13,180 bases of DNA, from IMG/VR virus record IMGVR_UViG_2526164632_000020. One strand, 5' to 3'. This stretch comes from a virus (taxonomy: Duplodnaviria; Heunggongvirae; Uroviricota; Caudoviricetes). The translations under genes and the position numbers were made by a program. How positions within the stretch are numbered: the first letter of the stretch is position 1; each line of letters opens with the position of its first letter. A model generated the notes under the pieces. The model saw only the letters and a list, made by a program, of their open reading frames with translations, ran no database searches and was not told where the DNA came from. Below are positions 452 through 13,112 of this stretch, piece after piece.

Positions 452-3025
452 TTACTGGACGGCAACAATCCGGTCTTCATTAACTTCCAGGCGAATCACT
501 TTACCCGGAACCAATTCACCAGACAGTATTTGCTGTGCCAGCGGGTTTTCGATCTGCTGCTGGATAGCACGTTTCAAAGGACGTGCACCATAGACTGGAT
601 CGTAACCGTTCTCGCTCAGCAGTTTCAGCGCCTCGTCAGAAATGTGGATTTCATAACCACGTTCTTCCAGACGTTTGTACAGACGTTTCAACTGAATCTG
701 CGCAATCGAGGCAATGTGCTGTTCACCCAGCGGATGGAAGACCACCACTTCATCAATACGGTTAATGAATTCCGGACGGAAGTTATGGCTTACCACACCG
801 AGCACCAGCTCTTTCATGTGCGCATAATCCAGTTCACCGAAGCGTTCCTGAATCAAATCGGAACCGAGGTTAGAGGTCATAATGACAACCGTATTACGGA
901 AGTCGACCGTTCTCCCCTGCCCGTCAGTCAGACGACCATCATCCAGTACCTGCAACAGAATGTTGAAGACATCCGGATGCGCTTTTTCCACTTCATCCAG
1001 CAGGATGACGGAATACGGACGACGACGCACAGCTTCGGTCAGGTAGCCACCTTCTTCATAACCGACATATCCCGGAGGCGCACCAACCAGACGAGACACC
1101 GAGTGTTTCTCCATAAACTCGGACATATCGATACGGACCATCGCCTCGTCGCTATCAAACATAAAGTTCGCCAGCGCCTTACAAAGCTCAGTTTTCCCCA
1201 CACCCGTTGGGCCGAGGAACAGGAATGAACCAATCGGGCGATTTGGATCCGCCAACCCCGCACGGCTACGGCGAATAGCGTTAGATACCGCATCAACCGC
1301 TTCGTTCTGACCAATGACGCGATGGTGCAGTTCTTGCTCCATACGCAGCAGTTTTTCGCGCTCGCTTTCCATCATGCGAGAAACCGGAATCCCCGTCCAA
1401 CGCGCCAGCACTTCAGCAATTTCGGCGTCGGTCACTTTATTACGCAACAGACGCATAGTTTTGCCTTCGAGCTGCGTTGCGGCTTCCAGTTGCTTTTCCA
1501 GTTCCGGGATTTTGCCGTATTGCAGTTCAGACATCCGCGCCAGGTCCCCCACACGGCGAGCCTGTTCAATAGCGATTTTCGCCTGTTCCAGTTCCGCTTT
1601 AATGGTCTGCGTACCAGAAAGCGATGCCTTCTCTGCTTTCCACTCTTCTTCTAACTCGGAGTACTGACGTTCTTTGTCGCTCAGTTCTTCGTTGAGCATA
1701 TCCAGGCGTTTTTTACTGGCTTCATCAGACTCTTTCATTAACGCCTGTTGTTCCAGTTTGAGCTGGATGATACGACGATCGAGTCGGTCGAGTTCTTCTG
1801 GTTTTGAGTCAATCTGCATACGAATGCTGGATGCTGCTTCATCGATCAGGTCGATGGCTTTATCCGGCAGCTGACGGTCAGCAATGTAGCGATGAGACAA
1901 CGTCGCCGCTGCAACAATTGCCGGGTCAGTAATTTGCACATGGTGGTGCAATTCGTAACGTTCTTTCAGGCCACGCAGAATCGCAATGGTATCTTCAACA
2001 GAAGGCTCGGCAACAAACACTTTCTGGAAACGACGTTCCAGCGCAGCATCTTTTTCGATGTACTGGCGATATTCGTCAAGCGTCGTGGCACCTACGCAGT
2101 GCAATTCACCACGCGCCAGCGCCGGTTTCAGCATGTTTCCGGCGTCCATTGCGCCATCGGCTTTACCCGCGCCGACCATGGTATGTAATTCGTCGATAAA
2201 CAGGATGACGTTGCCTTCCTGTTTGGCAAGATCGTTAAGCACGCCTTTTAAACGTTCTTCAAACTCACCGCGATATTTCGCCCCAGCCACCAGCGCGCCC
2301 ATATCCAGCGCCAGTACGCGGCGGCCTTTCAATCCTTCCGGCACTTCGCCGTTGATAATACGCTGCGCCAGACCTTCAACGATGGCAGTTTTACCGACGC
2401 CGGGTTCACCAATCAGTACCGGGTTATTTTTAGTACGACGTTGCAGCACCTGAATGGTACGGCGAATTTCTTCATCACGACCAATCACCGGATCGAGTTT
2501 GCCCTGTTCGGCTCGTTCGGTAAGGTCGATGGTATATTTTTTCAAAGCCTGACGTTGGTCTTCAGCACCTTGATCGTTCACGCTTTCACCTCCACGCATT
2601 TGTTCAATCGCTTGAGTAATGTTGGCGGTGGTCGCCCCTGCTGCTTTCAGGATGTCGGCCAGCGTGCCGCGAGACTCAAGTGCCGCCAGAACGAACAGTT
2701 CTGACGAGATAAAGTTATCACCACGTTTTTGCGCCAGCTTGTCGCAAAGATTAAGAACGCGCACCAGATCCTGTGATGGCTGGACATCACCACCAGTACC
2801 TTCAACCTGCGGTAAACGATTTAATGCCTGATTGATATCTGTGCGCAACTGGCCAGCATTTATGCCAGCGGATGTTAATAAAGGACTAACCGAACCCCCT
2901 TCCTGATTCAGCAGGGCGCTCATTAAATGAAGTGGTTCGATAAATTGGTTGTCGTGCCCGAGTGCAAGTGATTGGGCATCGGCAAGAGCAAGCTGGAATT
3001 TATTAGTAAGACGATCCAGACGCAT
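452..3025 (-). CDS. clpB: ClpB disaggregase (Hsp100, AAA+ chaperone), 857 aa
   Basis: ORF with two Walker A motifs ([16 protein letters not shown]) and a coiled-coil middle domain; starts [11 protein letters not shown] at ATG 3025 with SD GGGAGGAG upstream. The ORF-track start at 3037 is an upstream in-frame extension. Confidence 0.97.
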
Positions 3026-3057
3026 AACTCCTCCCATAACGGATCAAAGTTGCTACT

Positions 3058-3095
3058 GGAGATTAAATGAGGTCATCCCTCAATTATTCAAGGTT
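3058..3095 (-). promoter_or_regulatory. sigma-32 heat-shock promoter of clpB
   Basis: Minus strand CTTGAA (plus 3087-3092), 14-nt spacer, CCTCATTTA (plus 3062-3070); close to the sigma-32 consensus CTTGAA-N13-15-CCCCATnT. Confidence 0.6.
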
Positions 3096-3154
3096 ATTGA
3101 CCAGATTAATGTGAAAAGAAAATCACGCGTACCGGATCGTCTTGATTCTTTAGG

Positions 3155-3886
3155 TTATATCAGCCAAATGAAACTTGCCATACGACCGGTGGTCTTGTCG
3201 CGACGATAAGAGAAGAAAGTCTCATTTTCCGTATATGTACAACGGTCGCCGCCGAAAATTTGCTCAACACCCACGTTCGCCAGACGCTGCCGGGCAAGCT
3301 GATAAATATCCGCCAGATACTTATCACCATGCTGAATGAAAGCTGCACTTGCTTTAGCGTCTACTGCCATAAACGCCTCGCGAACCTCCACCCCCACTTC
3401 GAACGCGCGTGGACCAATTGCCGGCCCTAACCAGGCGAGAATATTTTCCGGATTATCAGCAAAACAGGAAACCGTCTCTTCCAGCACGCCTGCGCACAGT
3501 CCACGCCAGCCAGCATGAGCGGCGGCGACTTCCGTTCCCGCTCGATTGCAAAACAGCACAGGGAGGCAGTCGGCAGTCATCACTGCGCAAACCGTGCCGG
3601 GCGTATTGCTATAAGAGGCATCTGCTCGTTTTGAGGCATAAGGTTCGCCAGTAAGCTTAAGCACATCTTTGCCGTGTACCTGCTCAAGCCAGACCGGTTT
3701 AGAAGGCAAATTGCCCGCAGCAAAAAGTCGCTTGCGATTCTCCTCAACGTGATCCGGGTTATCGCCACAATGGGCACCGAGGTTGAGCGAGTCATACGGG
3801 GGCAAGCTCACGCCGCCGATACGAGAAGAGCTACAGGCCGCAACACCTTTTGGTAGCGGCCACTGCGGGACAATCAGCTTACTCAT
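3155..3886 (-). CDS. pgeF: YfiH/PgeF family protein (DUF152; peptidoglycan editing factor / purine nucleoside phosphorylase-like)
   Basis: 243-aa ORF MSKLIVPQWPLPKGVAAC... matching recalled E. coli YfiH; start overlaps the rluD stop by 4 nt. Confidence 0.93.
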   Translation of the reverse strand: MSKLIVPQWPLPKGVAACSSSRIGGVSLPPYDSLNLGAHCGDNPDHVEENRKRLFAAGNLPSKPVWLEQVHGKDVLKLTGEPYASKRADASYSNTPGTVCAVMTADCLPVLFCNRAGTEVAAAHAGWRGLCAGVLEETVSCFADNPENILAWLGPAIGPRAFEVGVEVREAFMAVDAKASAAFIQHGDKYLADIYQLARQRLANVGVEQIFGGDRCTYTENETFFSYRRDKTTGRMASFIWLI

Positions 3887-4863
3887 AACCAGTCCACTTC
3901 ATCCTTATGCTCTTCGAAATCGGCGCGCATCACCTCAATCAGCTCCACCATATCTTGTGGAATAGGCGCATGCCATTCCATTTCGATGCCGGAGATCGGG
4001 TGATAAAGACGCAGCATGGTTGCATGAAGCGCCTGGCGGTCAAACTTACGCAGCATGGAGATAAATGCTTCCGAAGCACCTTTTGGCGGACGCGGACGGC
4101 CACCATAAACCGGATCGCCCACCAGCGGATGAGTGATATGGGCCATATGCACGCGGATCTGGTGCGTACGTCCAGTTTCCAGACGCAACCGCAGACGCGT
4201 GTGCACACGGAAGTGTTCCATGATGCGATAGTGAGTCACCGCCGGTTTGCCCATCGGATGCACCGCCATGTGAGTACGTTTGGTCGGGTGGCGGCTGATG
4301 GGTTCATCTACTGTACCGCCAGCGGTCATATGACCAATCGCCACCGCTTCATACTCACGAGTAATTTCACGCCGTTGCAAAGATTCGACTAAACGCGTCT
4401 GAGCCGGAACGGTTTTTGCCACAACCATCAGGCCAGTGGTGTCTTTATCCAGACGATGGACGATGCCCGCACGTGGTACATCGGCAATGGGCGGATAGTA
4501 ATGAAGCAACGCATTCAGTACCGTGCCATCCGGGTTACCCGCGCCAGGATGTACCACCAGGTCGCGCGGTTTATTAATGACGATGATATCTTCATCTTCA
4601 TAGACGATATCCAGCGGGATATCCTGCGGTTCAAAACGCGCTTCTTCTTCAATCTCAGCGTTGATGGCAACCTGCTCGCCACCCAATACTTTTTCTTTCG
4701 GCTTATCACAAACTTTGCCGTTTACCAGCACGCGCTGGTCGAGGATCCATTCTTTTATTCGCGAACGTGAATAATCCGGGAACATTTCGGCCAAAGCCTG
4801 ATCTAAGCGTTGACCGAGTTGGTTTTCGGACACCGTTGCAGTGAGCTGTACTCGTTGTGCCAT
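3883..4863 (-). CDS. rluD: 23S rRNA pseudouridine synthase RluD
   Basis: 326-aa ORF with N-terminal S4-like domain and RluA-family catalytic motif HRLDKDTTG; conserved position upstream of yfiH. Confidence 0.95.
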   Translation of the reverse strand: MAQRVQLTATVSENQLGQRLDQALAEMFPDYSRSRIKEWILDQRVLVNGKVCDKPKEKVLGGEQVAINAEIEEEARFEPQDIPLDIVYEDEDIIVINKPRDLVVHPGAGNPDGTVLNALLHYYPPIADVPRAGIVHRLDKDTTGLMVVAKTVPAQTRLVESLQRREITREYEAVAIGHMTAGGTVDEPISRHPTKRTHMAVHPMGKPAVTHYRIMEHFRVHTRLRLRLETGRTHQIRVHMAHITHPLVGDPVYGGRPRPPKGASEAFISMLRKFDRQALHATMLRLYHPISGIEMEWHAPIPQDMVELIEVMRADFEEHKDEVDWL

Positions 4864-4997: not shown

Positions 4998-5735
4998 ATG
5001 ACGCGCATGAAATATCTGGTGGCAGCCGCCACACTAAGCCTGTTTTTGGCGGGTTGCTCGGGGTCAAAGGAAGAAGTACCTGATAATCCGCCAAATGAAA
5101 TTTACGCGACTGCACAACAAAAGCTGCAGGACGGTAACTGGAGACAGGCAATAACGCAACTGGAAGCGTTAGATAATCGCTATCCGTTTGGTCCGTATTC
5201 GCAGCAGGTGCAGCTGGATCTCATCTACGCCTACTATAAAAACGCCGATTTGCCGTTAGCGCAGGCTGCCATCGATCGTTTTATTCGCCTTAACCCGACC
5301 CATCCGAATATCGATTATGTCATGTACATGCGTGGCCTGACCAATATGGCGCTGGATGACAGTGCGCTGCAAGGGTTCTTTGGCGTTGACCGTAGCGATC
5401 GCGATCCTCAACATGCACGAGCTGCGTTTAGTGACTTTTCCAAACTGGTGCGCGGCTATCCAAACAGTCAGTACACCACCGATGCCACCAAACGTCTGGT
5501 ATTCCTGAAAGATCGTCTGGCGAAATATGAATACTCCGTGGCCGAGTACTATACAGAACGTGGCGCATGGGTTGCCGTCGTTAACCGCGTAGAAGGAATG
5601 TTGCGCGACTACCCGGATACCCAGGCTACGCGTGATGCGCTGCCGCTGATGGAAAATGCATACCGTCAGATGCAGATGAATGCGCAAGCTGAAAAAGTAG
5701 CGAAAATCATCGCCGCAAACAGCAGCAATACATAA
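4998..5735 (+). CDS. bamD: Outer membrane protein assembly factor BamD (YfiO), lipoprotein
   Basis: 245-aa ORF; signal peptide with lipobox LAGC (Cys20); TPR-like sequence; SD GAGGAAA upstream of ATG 4998. Confidence 0.95.
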
Positions 5736-5742
5736 CAGAAAC

Positions 5743-5773
5743 CTGAAATACAAAACGGCAGCCCTTGAGCTGC
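5743..5773 (+). terminator. Rho-independent terminator after bamD
   Basis: Stem ACGGCAGC / GCTGCCGT (5745-5752 / 5759-5766) followed by a run of seven T. Confidence 0.7.
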
Positions 5774-5950
5774 CGTTTTTTTATTCTGTTAGTTGTGAAA
5801 CTGAAGCGATTTAGTCACTATCGATCTCATCAAATATGGCTCGCTTTGAGATATTCCTCAAGTAAAAAACACCTCTTCCTGCGATTTCTCACAAAAAAGA
5901 TTCGTTGACAAAAAGTGACAAAATTATGAGATTCCCATCACACATTTTGA

Positions 5951-6346
<396 letters not shown>

Positions 6347-6369
6347 TCCTTTATATTGAGTGTATCGCC

Positions 6370-6393
6370 AACGCGCCTTCGGGCGCGTTTTTT
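6370..6393 (+). terminator. Rho-independent terminator of raiA
   Basis: Stem AACGCGCC / GGCGCGTT with loop TTCG followed by TTTTTT; 23 nt after the raiA stop. Confidence 0.75.
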
Positions 6394-6470
6394 GTAAAGC
6401 TAACAAATTGTTTCTATTAGCTTATTTCTTATAAACATCCACAAACTGTCCACATCAGTAATGATATACA

Positions 6471-6491
6471 AGCCCGCAAAAAATGCGGGCT
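6471..6491 (-). terminator. Hairpin 5 nt downstream of the methyltransferase stop (probable terminator between convergent raiA and prophage genes)
   Basis: Stem AGCCCGCA / TGCGGGCT with A5/T5 loop; on the minus strand followed by TGTATATCATT (weak U tract). Confidence 0.45.
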
Positions 6492-6496
6492 TTGTC

Positions 6497-7303
6497 TTAT
6501 GTAGCCGAAATGGTTGTGGTAATAGTCCCCCGAAGCCGCTGCGCTGCTACCTCAAAATAATGATCACTGGTTTCTATACCAATAAATTTTCGCCCTGCTT
6601 TCAGTGCAGCCACACCCGTTGTCCCTGACCCCATAAAAGGATCAAGGACTGTTCCGCCACTATTCACAGTCCTGACCAGTTCCGCCATTAGTTCTTCTGG
6701 TTTTCCGGTCGGGTGCATTTTCTTTGACGGGATAACCGGGTACGTCATGCAACCGTCGAACGGCCCCGAAGGCGATTTATCTAAATGGCCTTTGCTGCCC
6801 CAGACGATGTATTCGCACTGATGCCTGAAATACCCCGTATGGGGTGTTCGTGACCCCCTCCCCTTGTTCCACGCAATGATGCCGCGCCATGTAAAGCCGC
6901 TGGCCTGAAACGCATCGGTTAAAGCTGGTAGTTGTCGCCAGTCAGTAAATACCAGGGCATAACCGCCCGGCCTGACTGCGCGGTGTGCCTGTGCCATCCA
7001 TAATTGTGTCCAGTAAGCCCACGAACGGGCGTCCATGTTTTCACCCGCGAACCCATCAAAGCGGTGAAGGTTCTCGCCGTTCAGATATTTTGCATGGCTG
7101 CCTTGGTTGGTGCGTCCGGCCTTGTGTGTCGCACCCGAACTGTAAGGCGGGTCAGTGATTAAGGCATCAATGCTTTCTGGCTCAATCAGCGGCAATATTT
7201 CCAGCGCATTCCCACGACAGAGCGTGGCATTGTCAGTCTGATAAACCTTAGTGTGTTCCGGTGTATGTGCTGGTTGGTGCTGGATTGCGATCCCCACGGT
7301 CAT
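6497..7303 (-). CDS. Prophage DNA methyltransferase, beta-class N6-adenine/N4-cytosine family (DPPY motif IV before FxGSGTT motif I)
   Basis: 268-aa ORF with DPPY (catalytic motif) near the N-terminus and DPFMGSGTTGVAA (AdoMet motif) near the C-terminus. Start ATG 7303 lies only 2 nt after SD AGGAG; in-frame GTG 7297 has better spacing. Target specificity unknown. Confidence 0.85.
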   Translation of the reverse strand: MTVGIAIQHQPAHTPEHTKVYQTDNATLCRGNALEILPLIEPESIDALITDPPYSSGATHKAGRTNQGSHAKYLNGENLHRFDGFAGENMDARSWAYWTQLWMAQAHRAVRPGGYALVFTDWRQLPALTDAFQASGFTWRGIIAWNKGRGSRTPHTGYFRHQCEYIVWGSKGHLDKSPSGPFDGCMTYPVIPSKKMHPTGKPEELMAELVRTVNSGGTVLDPFMGSGTTGVAALKAGRKFIGIETSDHYFEVAAQRLRGTITTTISAT

Positions 7304-7445
7304 AACTCCTCATGTGTGTGGGGTGCTCGATGGCTCTCGTTATCTGGTTAAGTGTTTTGCAGCGCGGACATTTTATTTCAATGTAGTGAAATGAGGCGCG
7401 GGCAAGTAGTTTGTTGCAATTTTTGCATCGTACATTTTGCGTCAT
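7248..7445 (-). CDS. com: Com-like zinc-finger translational regulator (Mu Com family)
   Basis: 65-aa ORF MTQNVRCKNCNKLLARASFHYIEIKCPRCK...EHPT, matching the recalled Mu Com pattern (RCKNCNKLL...IEIRCPRCK...EHPT). SD AAGAGGTG 7 nt upstream of ATG 7445; 3' end overlaps the methyltransferase start by 56 nt. Confidence 0.75.
   Translation of the reverse strand: MTQNVRCKNCNKLLARASFHYIEIKCPRCKTLNQITRAIEHPTHMRSYDRGDRNPAPTSTYTGTH
7292..7323 (-). promoter_or_regulatory. mRNA stem-loop sequestering the methyltransferase SD and start codon (mom-like translation inhibition structure)
   Basis: On the minus-strand transcript CCCCAC (plus 7318-7323) pairs with GTGGGG (plus 7292-7297); the 20-nt loop holds SD AGGAG and ATG 7303, and the alternative GTG start is in the 3' arm. 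Confidence 0.45.
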
Positions 7446-7489
7446 TTGCGGCACCTCTTGTGTGGTTACTGCTGCCGATATGATAACAA

Positions 7490-7527
7490 ATCGATCGTTT
7501 TTATCGATCGGATTTATTGCATCGATC
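7490..7527 (-). promoter_or_regulatory. Cluster of three ATCGATC(G) repeats (three GATC Dam sites) upstream of the com promoter region
   Basis: ATCGATCG at 7490-7497 and 7503-7510, ATCGATC at 7521-7527, lying 45-82 nt upstream of the com ATG; resembles the Dam/OxyR-controlled region upstream of the Mu mom promoter. Confidence 0.4.
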
Positions 7528-7574
7528 TGTTATGCCTATTACTTATGAGTGGTGTTACCCTCATTTGTGAGGGT

Positions 7575-7612
7575 GACAAAAAGAAAACCCGCAGTTTTTA
7601 CGCTGCGGGTTT
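7575..7612 (-). terminator. Rho-independent terminator of the zinc-ribbon/TM2 gene
   Basis: Stem AAACCCGCAG / CTGCGGGTTT with 8-nt loop; on the minus strand followed by TCTTTTTGTC; 26 nt past the stop at 7638. Confidence 0.65.
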
Positions 7613-7637
7613 GTCATTCTGATTCGCCCACTAGGCA

Positions 7638-7934
7638 TTAGCCATATTTGCGGGCAAAGTCTTCATCAGAGGTGCATAGATAGATAAAAAACTCAATAAA
7701 TGCCACGATTGCCGGAATGAATGTCCAGCAAAAAATAAGGTAAAGGAATCCTTGCCCCACTTTACCTAAATAAAATTTGTGTGCACCAAGACCACCTAAA
7801 AAGAAAGCCAGTAGTGCGGCTGTCATTCTGCTTTTTGAACTTGCTGTTCTTTGAGGTGCTCCACAATTGGGGCAGGATGTGGCATCTTTATGTATTTCCT
7901 TGCCGCATCCGCGACAAAATACCATTTCACTCAT
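7638..7934 (-). CDS. Small membrane protein with N-terminal zinc-ribbon (CxxC...CxxC) and TM2-like domain; prophage cargo of unknown function
   Basis: 98-aa ORF MSEMVFCRGCGKEIHKDATSCPNCGAPQ followed by two hydrophobic helices with a TM2-type motif (LGGLGAHKFYLGKVGQG); SD-like AAAGGAA upstream. Confidence 0.7.
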   Translation of the reverse strand: MSEMVFCRGCGKEIHKDATSCPNCGAPQRTASSKSRMTAALLAFFLGGLGAHKFYLGKVGQGFLYLIFCWTFIPAIVAFIEFFIYLCTSDEDFARKYG

Positions 7935-8069
7935 AAAGAGTTCCTTTCAAATTTAAATAAGCGTTAAACCCACCACTCTTACTGGTGGGCCTCAATTTAA
8001 ATTTGGGTGCCACTTCGACCATACCCTGGCAACCGATTGACGGGGGATTGCTCCCCCGTCGCGGTTTCC

Positions 8070-8210
8070 TTACTGCTTACACTGTAAGAACGCCGCAAAC
8101 TCCGCTCCCCAGAAGCTCATCCGTATTTCGCACAGCGAACCATGCAGCATCCAGATGATGAGGATTGCCGTCACGCAGAACGTGATGGCCGTAAGCGATT
8201 TTTGCGACAT
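8070..8210 (-). CDS. hok: Hok/Gef-family type I toxin (46 aa), below the ORF-track length cut-off
   Basis: Hand translation of the minus strand from ATG 8210: MSQKSLTAITFCVTAILIIWMLHGSLCEIRMSFWGAEFAAFLQCKQ*. Single TM helix followed by the Hok signature SLCEIR...AAFL.C; SD AAGGAG 8 nt upstream. Confidence 0.6.
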   Translation of the reverse strand: MSQKSLTAITFCVTAILIIWMLHGSLCEIRMSFWGAEFAAFLQCKQ

Positions 8211-8340
8211 AGCACTTGCTCCTTTTCCGGAGAGGCGCTAACCTTTCACTTGTCAAGGTAATGCGGTTAGGGCCTCGGTTAAACAGAAATGTTTTCCGGG
8301 GCCTTTCCACATCCGGCCTTCGGGTATTCCCTCCGACCAT
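8077..8340 (-). CDS. mok: mok-like overlapping reading frame (modulator of killing) required for hok translation
   Basis: Open frame starting upstream of hok, overlapping nearly all of it in another frame and ending 7 nt before the hok stop, as in hok/mok loci. True start uncertain: ATG 8340 or GTG 8310 (GAAGG 7 nt upstream). Confidence 0.35.
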   Translation of the reverse strand: MVGGNTRRPDVERPRKTFLFNRGPNRITLTSERLAPLRKRSKCYVAKIAYGHHVLRDGNPHHLDAAWFAVRNTDELLGSGVCGVLTV

Positions 8341-8380
8341 CAGCCGAAAGGCACCCGCGCGTAATCTATCGCTTTTTTGT
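8290..8380 (+). ncRNA. sok: Predicted Sok-like antisense RNA (position approximate)
   Basis: Expected by analogy with hok/sok: a short antisense transcript covering the mok translation-initiation region. A plus-strand T6 run at 8373-8378 could be its terminator tail; no convincing promoter found by eye. Confidence 0.15.
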
Positions 8381-8400
8381 TACTCCGGCAATTCTGCCTG

Positions 8401-8661
8401 TTAATTCTGAGATAAAGGCAAGCTCATCTGATTGTTTCCCCTGTGTGAAGCTGGCAGCTCATGCCACGGGATACCTTCTGAAGAGTGAACGCCGGAGGCA
8501 TGTTTCGATGTGAATTTATGGAAAGCTTCCAGTGTTGAGAAGCATACGCCGCATTCCAGATTGTTACACTGGTAATACTTTTGCCGCACGGTGTTTGAAT
8601 CATTTTCCGGACGACTGGTGCGGATACGGGCAGATGCGCCACAAAGCGGACAACGGAACAT
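8401..8661 (-). CDS. ogr: Ogr/Delta-family zinc-finger late-gene transcription activator (P2-like)
   Basis: 86-aa ORF MFRCPLCGASARIRTSR...YYQCNNLECGVCF with the four-Cys Ogr zinc finger (P2 Ogr begins MFHCPLCQHAAHARTSR...YHQCQNVNCSATF); C-terminus diverges; SD AGGGAGG upstream. Confidence 0.8.
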   Translation of the reverse strand: MFRCPLCGASARIRTSRPENDSNTVRQKYYQCNNLECGVCFSTLEAFHKFTSKHASGVHSSEGIPWHELPASHRGNNQMSLPLSQN

Positions 8662-8676
8662 AGCGACCTCCCTTAA

Positions 8677-10729
<2,053 letters not shown>

Positions 10730-10734
10730 TTATC
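10730..10734. repeat. Target-site duplication TTATC (right copy)
   Basis: TTATC immediately outside the right inverted repeat. Confidence 0.7.
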
Positions 10735-11771
10735 AATGGTGTGCTCGGCTTTTGCAATGATCCAGTCCTGATTATCAATCTCGCTTTTAAATCCTGTTAC
10801 CGTGCCATGCATTTCGGGGTAGAGTTCTGCACGTCCACGCGCCAGCGTGATGGAGAATGATGCGGCTCCGCGTTGTAGTTGCTGCCACTTTGCCGCCGCT
10901 GCGCGTCTTGCTGCCTGCTCGTTCTGATAAGTCTTGCGTAACACAAACACATTGCCATCCGCGCCTTCCATATAGTCACCTTCACGGCTGCTGCTTTTCT
11001 CCTTTTTGGGTTTTGGCGGTTTACGGCGTTTCACGCTGACTTTTTTCTTTTTCCCGTAATTAAGATCAAGCCAGTAGGCGCGTACCCCCGTATACGCCTC
11101 GCGGTCAGCAATACGGAACTGATGGCGATCGCCGCTGCTGTGTGTAATGGCGAACGAGGGCAACGGCTGGCCCTGTGCGTTCACGCCACCACCTGGCATG
11201 ATGAATAACAGATTACCGCTTTTTACCGTGGTGATTGCGCCCAGCATTTCCGCCATGCGCGTAAGGAAGGACATGTCGCTTTCTTCGGTCTGGTCGGCGT
11301 GGTCGATTTCGATATCCATCAGCATTTCGCTGATTTGCGGTTTCAGACCATACCGATGAGCGATGGCGGATACCACACGCTCAACGGTCACATCATGCCA
11401 GGACACCTCACGTTTAACGTTAAATTCATCCCGAAAATCTGCGCTTCTGGCTGAAACAGTCAGCCTGTCCGGCGGTCCTTCGTGAGCGATTTCATCAACA
11501 ATGTAAGTGCCTTTTTCTGTCAGCGGTTCTCCCTTCCAGCCAATGAGAACCGTCAGGCGCGCGCCCCGTGGCGGTAGCTGCAACTGACCATCCGCATCAT
11601 CCAACGTGATGGTGAGCTGGTCCGCCTCAAACCCCGGTTGTCGGTCAGTGACAGGCTCATCAGGCGCTCTGCCACGCCTGACAGCGTTTTACCCTCCGCG
11701 AGAATATCAAAATCCGGCATTTTCACGGGGTCTGTGCCCTGACTGAGCAATTGCATGGTGGTGTCGGTCAT
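10730..11771 (-). pseudogene. P2-like tail protein D (late control gene D family), frameshifted near 11625-11637 and 3'-truncated by the IS insertion
   Basis: Start ATG 11771 (SD GGAGGA upstream): MTDTTMQLLSQGTDPVKMPDFDILAEGKTLSGVAERLMSLSLTDNRG, then the frame shifts by 1 nt at a GGGGTTT run into ...FEADQLTITLDDADGQLQLPPRGARL... (the 296-aa ORF). The reading frame runs into the IS right end at 10729. Confidence 0.85.
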
Positions 11772-11928
11772 CTGCTCCTCCCCTGTGCGGCATGGTCGCA
11801 TGTGCGTGCGGAGGGGGTTACTGCTTTTTGTTGTCGCCGGGTCGGGAGAACGGCGCAGGGGTGAGATTACGCGCGTGGTGGGTGATGATTGTTGCCGAAT
11901 CATTTAACGGATACAAGGGGCTGAAGCT

Positions 11929-13112
11929 ATGAGTGAAACTCGTTTTCATGGTGCCCGTGTTACGGAAATACCGACCTGGTAACAGCGATTAACGATGTTG
12001 ATTCCAGCGTTATCGGTATCGTGGCAACGGCGGATGATGCGGACGCGAAGCTGTTCCCGCTGAGCAAGCCCACACTGCTGACCCGCGTTAATGACGTGCT
12101 GGGAAAATGCGGGACAACGGGGACGCTTTATCGTGCGCTTAAGGCCATCGCAGACCAGGTGAGCACAAAGGTGATCGTCGTTCGCGTGGCTGAACACAAA
12201 GAAGAAGACGGAAAGACGCAGGATCAACTGGTTATCGGTGGTTCTGAAGATGACGGCAGCTATACGGGGATGTATGCGCTGCTTGTTGCAGAGCAGGATG
12301 AAAGCATCGGATACCGTCCGCGTATTCTGGCCGCGCCGGAGCTGGACACGGAGGCGGTGACAAAATCCCTGTGCGTGATTGCGGGTAAACTGCGCGCGTT
12401 TGTGTATGCCTCATGTCACGGCTGTAACACGATGGCTGAGGCGATTACCTACCGCCAGAAATTCAACGAACGTGAGGTGATGCTCTTATGGCCGGACTTC
12501 ATCGCCTACAACCCGAAAAGTGGCAAAAACGAAACGTTCCCCGCGCCTGCCTATGCGTGCGGCCTTCGTGCGTACATTGACCATGAGCAGGGCTGGCACA
12601 AATCGCTGTCCAACGTTCCTGTTAAAAATGTGCTGGGAATGTCCAGGCATGTGTTCTGGTCGTTGCAGGCCGAAGACAGTGATGCCAACAGCCTCAACAA
12701 CAAAGAAATCACGACCATTATTCGTCGCAACGGGTTCCGCTTCTGGGGCAACCGCACACCGGAAACGAACGCCTACATCTTTGAGGTGTATACCCGAACC
12801 GCACAGGTGCTGGCTGATTCAATTGCAGAAGCGCAGTTTGAAACCATCGACAGTCCACTGACGCCTGCGAACGTGAAGGATGTTATCAGTGCCATCAGGG
12901 CAAAACTGGATTCACTGGTTACTGCCGGGAAACTGATTGGCGCGGAGTGCTGGTATGACGTGGTGGATAACAGCACCACGGATTTACGTCAGGGACGTGT
13001 GCGTATTCGCTATAAATATACGCCCGTTCCGCCACTGGAAGACATGGAGCTTTACCAGACGTTTACTGATGAATACTTTGAACCTGCATTTGCGGTGCTG
13101 GGAGGTGCCTGA
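11929..13112 (+). CDS. P2-like tail sheath protein FI, with an N-terminal -1 frameshift near 11964-11969 (possibly a pseudogene)
   Basis: ATG 11929 with SD AAGGGG gives MSETRFHGARVTEI...* (stop 11980); the 363-aa ORF in the adjacent frame (...DADAKLFPL...GFRFWGNRT...YKYTPVPPLE...) carries the rest of the sheath. Span is 1184 nt, i.e. 1185 - 1. The intact downstream ORF begins at GTG 12021. Confidence 0.85.

Follow-up and report, generated by a model that had tools for sequence, protein, structure and literature searches.

Where the Escherichia coli chromosome gives way to phage DNA downstream of raiA, and what kind of site the phage has entered, is the question raised by this locus. The window (the whole stretch of 13,180 nucleotides that was analysed) carries clpB, yfiH, rluD, bamD and raiA, in that order, followed by phage genes on the minus strand. 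It agrees at 100% identity with the draft contig AIHC01000072.1 (assembly GCA_000250255.2) over contig positions 2210-15389. This 15.4-kb contig stops within the prophage, in the tail sheath gene, with the pheL-side end outside of it, and the window holds one prophage end only. With a probability of roughly 95%, the stretch 6369-6496 is the ogr-proximal junction of a P2-family prophage that is site-specifically integrated in the intrinsic terminator of raiA. The features that define the junction are as follows.

6005..6346, plus strand: raiA (ribosome-associated inhibitor A), the last core gene before the junction (Pfam PF02482 Ribosomal_S30AE, E = 7.5e-23; RefSeq annotation of the identical sequence).
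6370-6389, followed by the T-run: raiA intrinsic terminator hairpin (terminator scan).
6369..6395, unstranded: att core of 27 bp, CAACGCGCCTTCGGGCGCGTTTTTTGT, equal to the raiA terminator hairpin plus T-run, in the host-type copy with G at 6375 (repeat at both prophage ends; single copy in K-12; terminator scan).
6376..6395, unstranded: probable strand-exchange interval (host G kept on the raiA side, phage A kept on the pheL side; end-to-end identity stops after 6395).
6497..7303, minus strand: DNA methyltransferase (N6/N4 type), the first prophage gene, converging on raiA (Pfam PF01555, E = 2.3e-33; RefSeq WP_000215756.1).

A query of 1701 bp (window 5700-7400) was searched against 5426 complete E. 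coli genomes. The window sequence up to 6395 (query base 696) was matched in all 5426, with the match ending at that base in 5319 genomes and running on past it in 107. A three-way alignment has identity through ...GCGCGTTTTTTGT and total divergence thereafter, such that the last base common to both sequences is 6395 and the junction lies 23-49 bp 3' of the raiA stop codon. In K-12, the Phe leader and pheL-pheA are found directly 3' of the raiA terminator, on which annotation and alignment agree, and the K-12 raiA-pheL interval, used as a query, is uninterrupted in 5273 of the 5426 complete genomes and split in 153. The sequence-only reading had the core synteny ending at the raiA terminator, pheL-pheA following directly in K-12, the first phage genes converging on raiA and the right end of a prophage within about 50 bp of the raiA stop, all of which agree with these alignments. 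Its breakpoint at about 6394 is real and moves by a single base, to 6395. The description of the DNA past the junction as AT-rich prophage sequence holds for an att arm of approximately 75 bp (28% GC over the 74 bp of 6396-6469, compared with 50% for the core genes) but not for the methylase gene, which has 53% GC. This AT-rich sequence does not behave as conserved core DNA, with raiA and pheL contiguous in the 5273 genomes noted above.

The raiA terminator is itself the attachment core, and not merely a neighbor of the junction. The 27-bp core (consensus CAACGC[G/A]CCTTCGGGCGCGTTTTTTGT, window 6369-6395) is present as a direct repeat at both prophage ends in three complete genomes (FDAARGOS_1059, O111:H2 12A and ET358), with the copies 38,389 bp apart in O111:H2 12A and 35,063 bp apart in ET358, and as a single copy in the K-12 empty site. 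The raiA-side junction in the window reads ...gtgtatcgcCAACGCGCCTTCGGGCGCGTTTTTTGTaaagctaac... and the pheL-side junction in FDAARGOS_1059 reads ...ttcagtgggttttaCAACGCACCTTCGGGCGCGTTTTTTGTtgacagcg..., and the host flanks to the left and right, joined through the core, give the exact K-12 sequence. At the seventh base, the raiA-side core always has the host G and the pheL-side core always has an A (FDAARGOS_1059, O111:H2 12A, ET358 and rl0044), and strand exchange is therefore placed between 6376 and 6395. The raiA terminator, with an 8-bp stem, a TTCG loop and the T-run, folds at -14.4 kcal/mol, while the phage-type core hairpin with the A mismatch folds at -9.0 kcal/mol.

The far end of the prophage, which the sequence-only reading had correctly placed outside the window together with the integrase, is available in related genomes. 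FDAARGOS_1059 has the same prophage in its raiA-pheL interval, with int next to pheL and interrupted by IS679. ET358 and rl0044 have an intact Int of 329 amino acids adjoining pheL, and past int come genes for a C-type repressor and a Cox-family protein. The Int of ET358 shares 54% identity with P2 Int along the full length (E = 6e-136), and its best match among 50,697 deposited phage genomes is Klebsiella phage 3LV2017, at 64% identity; accordingly, no phage Int with specificity for the raiA terminator was found among the deposited phages. The identification of the inserted DNA as a P2-like prophage is borne out by its gene content. Pfam matches within the window include Ogr_Delta and Phage_GPD, and complete copies of the prophage encode the portal, terminase, scaffold, P2-family capsid, lysis, baseplate, tail fibre, sheath, tube and tape measure proteins, along with D, ogr, a replication endonuclease, cox, C and int. 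The phage genes and elements of the window, beyond the methyltransferase gene, are listed here.

7249..7446, minus strand: Com-family zinc-finger gene, overlapping the beginning of the methylase gene (annotated by RefSeq in the FDAARGOS_1059 sequence, at 99.7% identity; ORF 7248-7454).
7638-7934, minus strand: zinc-ribbon and TM2-domain protein.
8070-8210, minus strand: hok-like toxin.
8197-8356: sok-like RNA (Rfam RF01794 at 46 bits, where the gathering score is 59).
8401..8661, minus strand: ogr, the P2 late-gene activator, marking the ogr-proximal (right) end (Pfam PF04606, E = 5e-14; RefSeq annotation).
8776..10729, plus strand: IS100 in gene D, flanked by the duplicated 5-bp target TTATC, 8771-8775 and 10730-10734 (FDAARGOS_1059 alignment breaks at 8775/10730 with a 5-bp overlap).
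10730..11903, minus strand: gene D (tail protein), cut by IS100 and frameshifted (Pfam PF05954; two ORFs, 11553-11903 and 10714-11604).

That a non-phage integrative island or a satellite with a few P2 genes has inserted here is very improbable. The genes proximal to the att site (the methylase, com, TM2 and hok) are accessory and not P2 core genes, as such an element might carry, but the complete copies in FDAARGOS_1059 and ET358 hold the full P2 gene set over 35 kb between the repeats. Still less credible is that the sequence after 6395 represents variable core DNA, or a local rearrangement or deletion of pheL-pheA. Such a reading could be entertained from the window, which by itself does not reveal the other end, but 97% of the complete E. 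coli genomes join raiA directly to pheL without any of the sequence past 6395, and the location of pheL-pheA in carriers is clear, with pheL-pheA-tyrA-aroF intact and directly after the other prophage end. That an assembly error fused raiA to phage DNA in a chimeric contig, as might be suspected of a 15.4-kb draft contig in which several genes are frameshifted, is next to impossible given the identical junction in 107 complete genomes. What stands is the prophage junction, and the DNA between the core and the first phage gene can be compared with the attachment site of P2 itself, through three further features.

6396..6435, minus strand: AT-rich spacer of the P arm, with an IHF-like site, AAACAATTTGTTA, at 6401-6413 (28% GC over 6396-6469; one mismatch to WATCAANNNNTTR).
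6436..6454, minus strand: two direct Int arm-type repeats, 11 bp apart, TGTGGACA (6454-6447) and TGTGGATG (6443-6436) (P2-type arm consensus; alignment to the P2 P arm).
6470..6492, unstranded: hairpin AAGCCCGC-AAAAAAT-GCGGGCTT, terminator of the methylase gene (terminator scan; collinear with the annotated ogr terminator of P2, just outside the P arm).

In minus-strand order, the methylase terminator (6492-6470) is followed by the arm repeats (6454-6436), the AT-rich spacer with the IHF-like site (6413-6401) and the core. The stretch 6396-6496 is collinear with the annotated P2 attP, with the same order of elements at nearly equal spacing, and the A-run with which the core starts falls in the same alignment columns as in P2. 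The arm repeats align with the annotated P arm of P2, GATGTGGTCAATGTGTGGACG, and agree with the arm consensus of P2-type integrases, tgTGGaCa (PMC3448106); TCCACA-N5-TCCACA occurs once in the window, compared with an expectation of 0.05. A further pair of arm repeats, oriented like the first, overlaps the stop codon of int at the far end, at a distance of 89 bp from the core. The IHF-like site aligns column for column with CAATTTATT inside the annotated IHF site of P2 (motif CAATTTRTT). Window-wide, 10 matches to the IHF consensus were found where 11.5 are expected, so that the match at 6401-6413 taken by itself is no better than chance, and it is counted here for its position only. The order of elements matches P2 attP, which argues that 6396-6496 is the phage P arm and that the prophage end in the window, the right end as had been proposed, corresponds to P-O-B', or attR in the P2 convention.

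A 299-bp attP reconstructed from the two junctions had no match by megablast among the 50,697 phage records. With no free phage carrying the predicted attP among these records, the attP is therefore a reconstruction and not an observed sequence. The right end of the phage was matched in the same records by phage Chuche only, the nearest phage for the region from the methylase gene to ogr; the match runs from window position 6534 inward, and the att region of Chuche therefore differs.

A mechanism consistent with this arrangement would begin with a phage attP that carries a near-copy of the raiA terminator as its 27-bp core, with the hairpin stems supplying the dyad symmetry needed by core-type integrase sites. 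On one flank of the core would lie the P arm, with its two Int arm repeats and a predicted IHF-type bend site, and on the other flank a spacer of approximately 89 bp, about the length of the P2 Cox-binding region, together with a P' arm overlapping the int stop codon; the binding of IHF and Cox to these sites is predicted. The tyrosine integrase would then exchange strands within 6376-6395 and so duplicate the core. As a result, the raiA side would retain the exact host terminator, base for base through T6GT, and the pheL side would receive the phage-derived core, with one stem mismatch (A for G), directly against TTGACA.

Such an exchange would leave the host signals largely as they were. The raiA side keeps the host terminator, and integration should therefore not alter the 3' ends of the raiA mRNA and RaiZ. 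RaiZ is a small RNA processed from the 3' part of raiA and its 3'UTR and bound by ProQ (PMC5391140). An Rfam scan of 5700-8800 did not find the RaiZ family, and at the junction it returned only look-alikes of the terminator (STnc130, MicC and Trp_leader), with scores well short of the gathering thresholds. On the other side, a TTGACA hexamer, whose first base is the last of the core and which lies 55 bp 5' of the pheL ATG, is intact after integration. This hexamer is presumably the -35 element of pheA, an assignment reportedly made by Hudson and Davidson in 1984. A promoter scan of the K-12 raiA-pheL spacer did not flag the pheL promoter, because its -10 hexamer is too weak for the rule applied. 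The int gene is transcribed toward pheL, with a strong phage hairpin and the phage core hairpin between the two, and together these hairpins would limit read-through from int to pheL. We infer that raiA and the pheL-pheA operon keep their signals after integration, and an effect on the expression of raiA or pheA is not predicted from the arrangement of the two junctions.

The raiA-pheL interval is interrupted in more than one way. Among the 153 interrupted sites, 125 have the int-side junction of the P2-like myovirus described here adjoining pheL, six have a second int-side junction and approximately 22 have neither; the latter may be divergent elements, deletions or IS insertions. The second phage, present in six complete genomes (e.g., E. 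coli 1604D011; NZ_CP149553.1; locus 2920-4020), has an HK97/lambda-type head, siphovirus tail genes and its own C/cox region, along with a P2-type integrase that is 57% identical to the Int of the first phage. Its pheL-side repeat is shorter (GCACCTTCGGGCGCGTTTTTTGT) and has the same A-for-G change. It is a speculative and rather unlikely extension that the raiA/RaiZ terminator is a small integration hotspot instead of the private target of one phage. Were the stem-weakening A-for-G change of both phage-derived cores functional, lysogeny at this site could tune read-through into pheL-pheA or the ProQ-dependent biology of RaiZ, and so not be neutral.

Several observations bear on the condition of the prophage copy in the window. 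Between ogr and the att arm, an interval that in P2 holds just a terminator, four accessory genes occupy 6497-8360 on the minus strand, and the com-methylase pair has the layout of com-mom in Mu with a different enzyme. The IS100 element (IS21 family) is full-length at 1954 bp, is 99.6-99.9% identical to annotated copies from Yersinia pestis and E. coli plasmids and cuts gene D 72 nt before its stop codon; in a search with the whole phage part, no complete E. coli genome had IS100 at this position in gene D. Within IS100, istA and istB are each present as two ORFs, which may be real decay or homopolymer errors of the draft. A split of gene D is also annotated in O111:H2 12A and ET358. The tail sheath ORF (12021-13112) encodes 363 amino acids, compared with a gene of 1185 nt in relatives, and the contig ends just past the ORF. 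The closest complete genome is O111:H2 12A, with 99.7% identity over the phage part and IS679 in int. This IS66-family element splits int at 6520-10221 of the FDAARGOS_1059 locus and at 6884-10585 of the O111:H2 12A locus, and the prophage is therefore probably non-excisable in the lineage closest to the window. Because of IS100 and the frameshift in gene D, and of IS679 in int of the closest complete genome, the prophage of the window lineage is probably an immobile, grounded remnant, and its junction the trace left by an earlier integration.

The analysis fixes the exact boundary of a prophage carried at raiA-pheL by approximately 2-3% of complete E. coli genomes. It also provides the att core and arm layout for a P2-type integrase specificity for which neither a description nor a deposited phage genome was found, which can be used in prophage annotation and possibly as another orthogonal integrase/att pair. 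A search of mostly open-access literature located no paper on the raiA (yfiA)-pheL interval as an attachment site of P2-like phages. P2-type integrases target intergenic sites and not tRNA genes, with cores of approximately 21-27 nt deduced from the attL/attR repeats (Nilsson and Haggard-Ljungquist 2011, PMC3448106). None of the positions in Table 1 of that paper corresponds to the raiA-pheL interval (~2.73 Mb in K-12), and the terms yfiA, raiA and pheA are absent from its text.

The closest known system is P2 (NC_001895, attP core at 24356-24382), in which the annotated order of attP is terminator, Int P arm, IHF site, 27-bp core, Cox region and P' arm in the 3' end of int. The raiA-site prophage and P2 each have a core of 27 bp and the int-C-cox switch, and on the ogr side each has, directly past a terminator, two direct TGTGGnCA-type arm repeats spaced 11 bp apart. 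Between this arm and the core lies an AT-rich region, which in P2 holds the annotated IHF site and here the IHF-like match, and a second arm overlaps the 3' end of int approximately 87-89 bp from the core; the integrases are 54% identical. The two differ in target, which is locI for P2 and the raiA terminator here, and in the sequence of the core, and, unlike P2, the raiA-site prophage has four accessory genes (hok/sok-like, TM2, com and the methylase) between ogr and the P arm.

That a phage enters a dyad-symmetric terminator and restores the host signal as it integrates is textbook behavior. Phage 186, HP1 and Fels-2/SopE-phi (ssrA) likewise bring along the 3' stem-loop of a host RNA gene and regenerate it upon integration; here, the structure so restored is the terminator shared by the raiA mRNA and the 3'-derived small RNA RaiZ. 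Compared with integration at the ends of tRNA, tmRNA or sRNA genes, the site at raiA is a plain intrinsic terminator, with a 27-bp core and an integrase of the P2 type and not the 186 type. The locus is an ordinary prophage-chromosome junction of a known type of system, which leaves the concept unchanged and adds to it the exact 27-bp core, the terminator as the attachment site, the anatomy of the P arm and the frequency of the prophage in the population.
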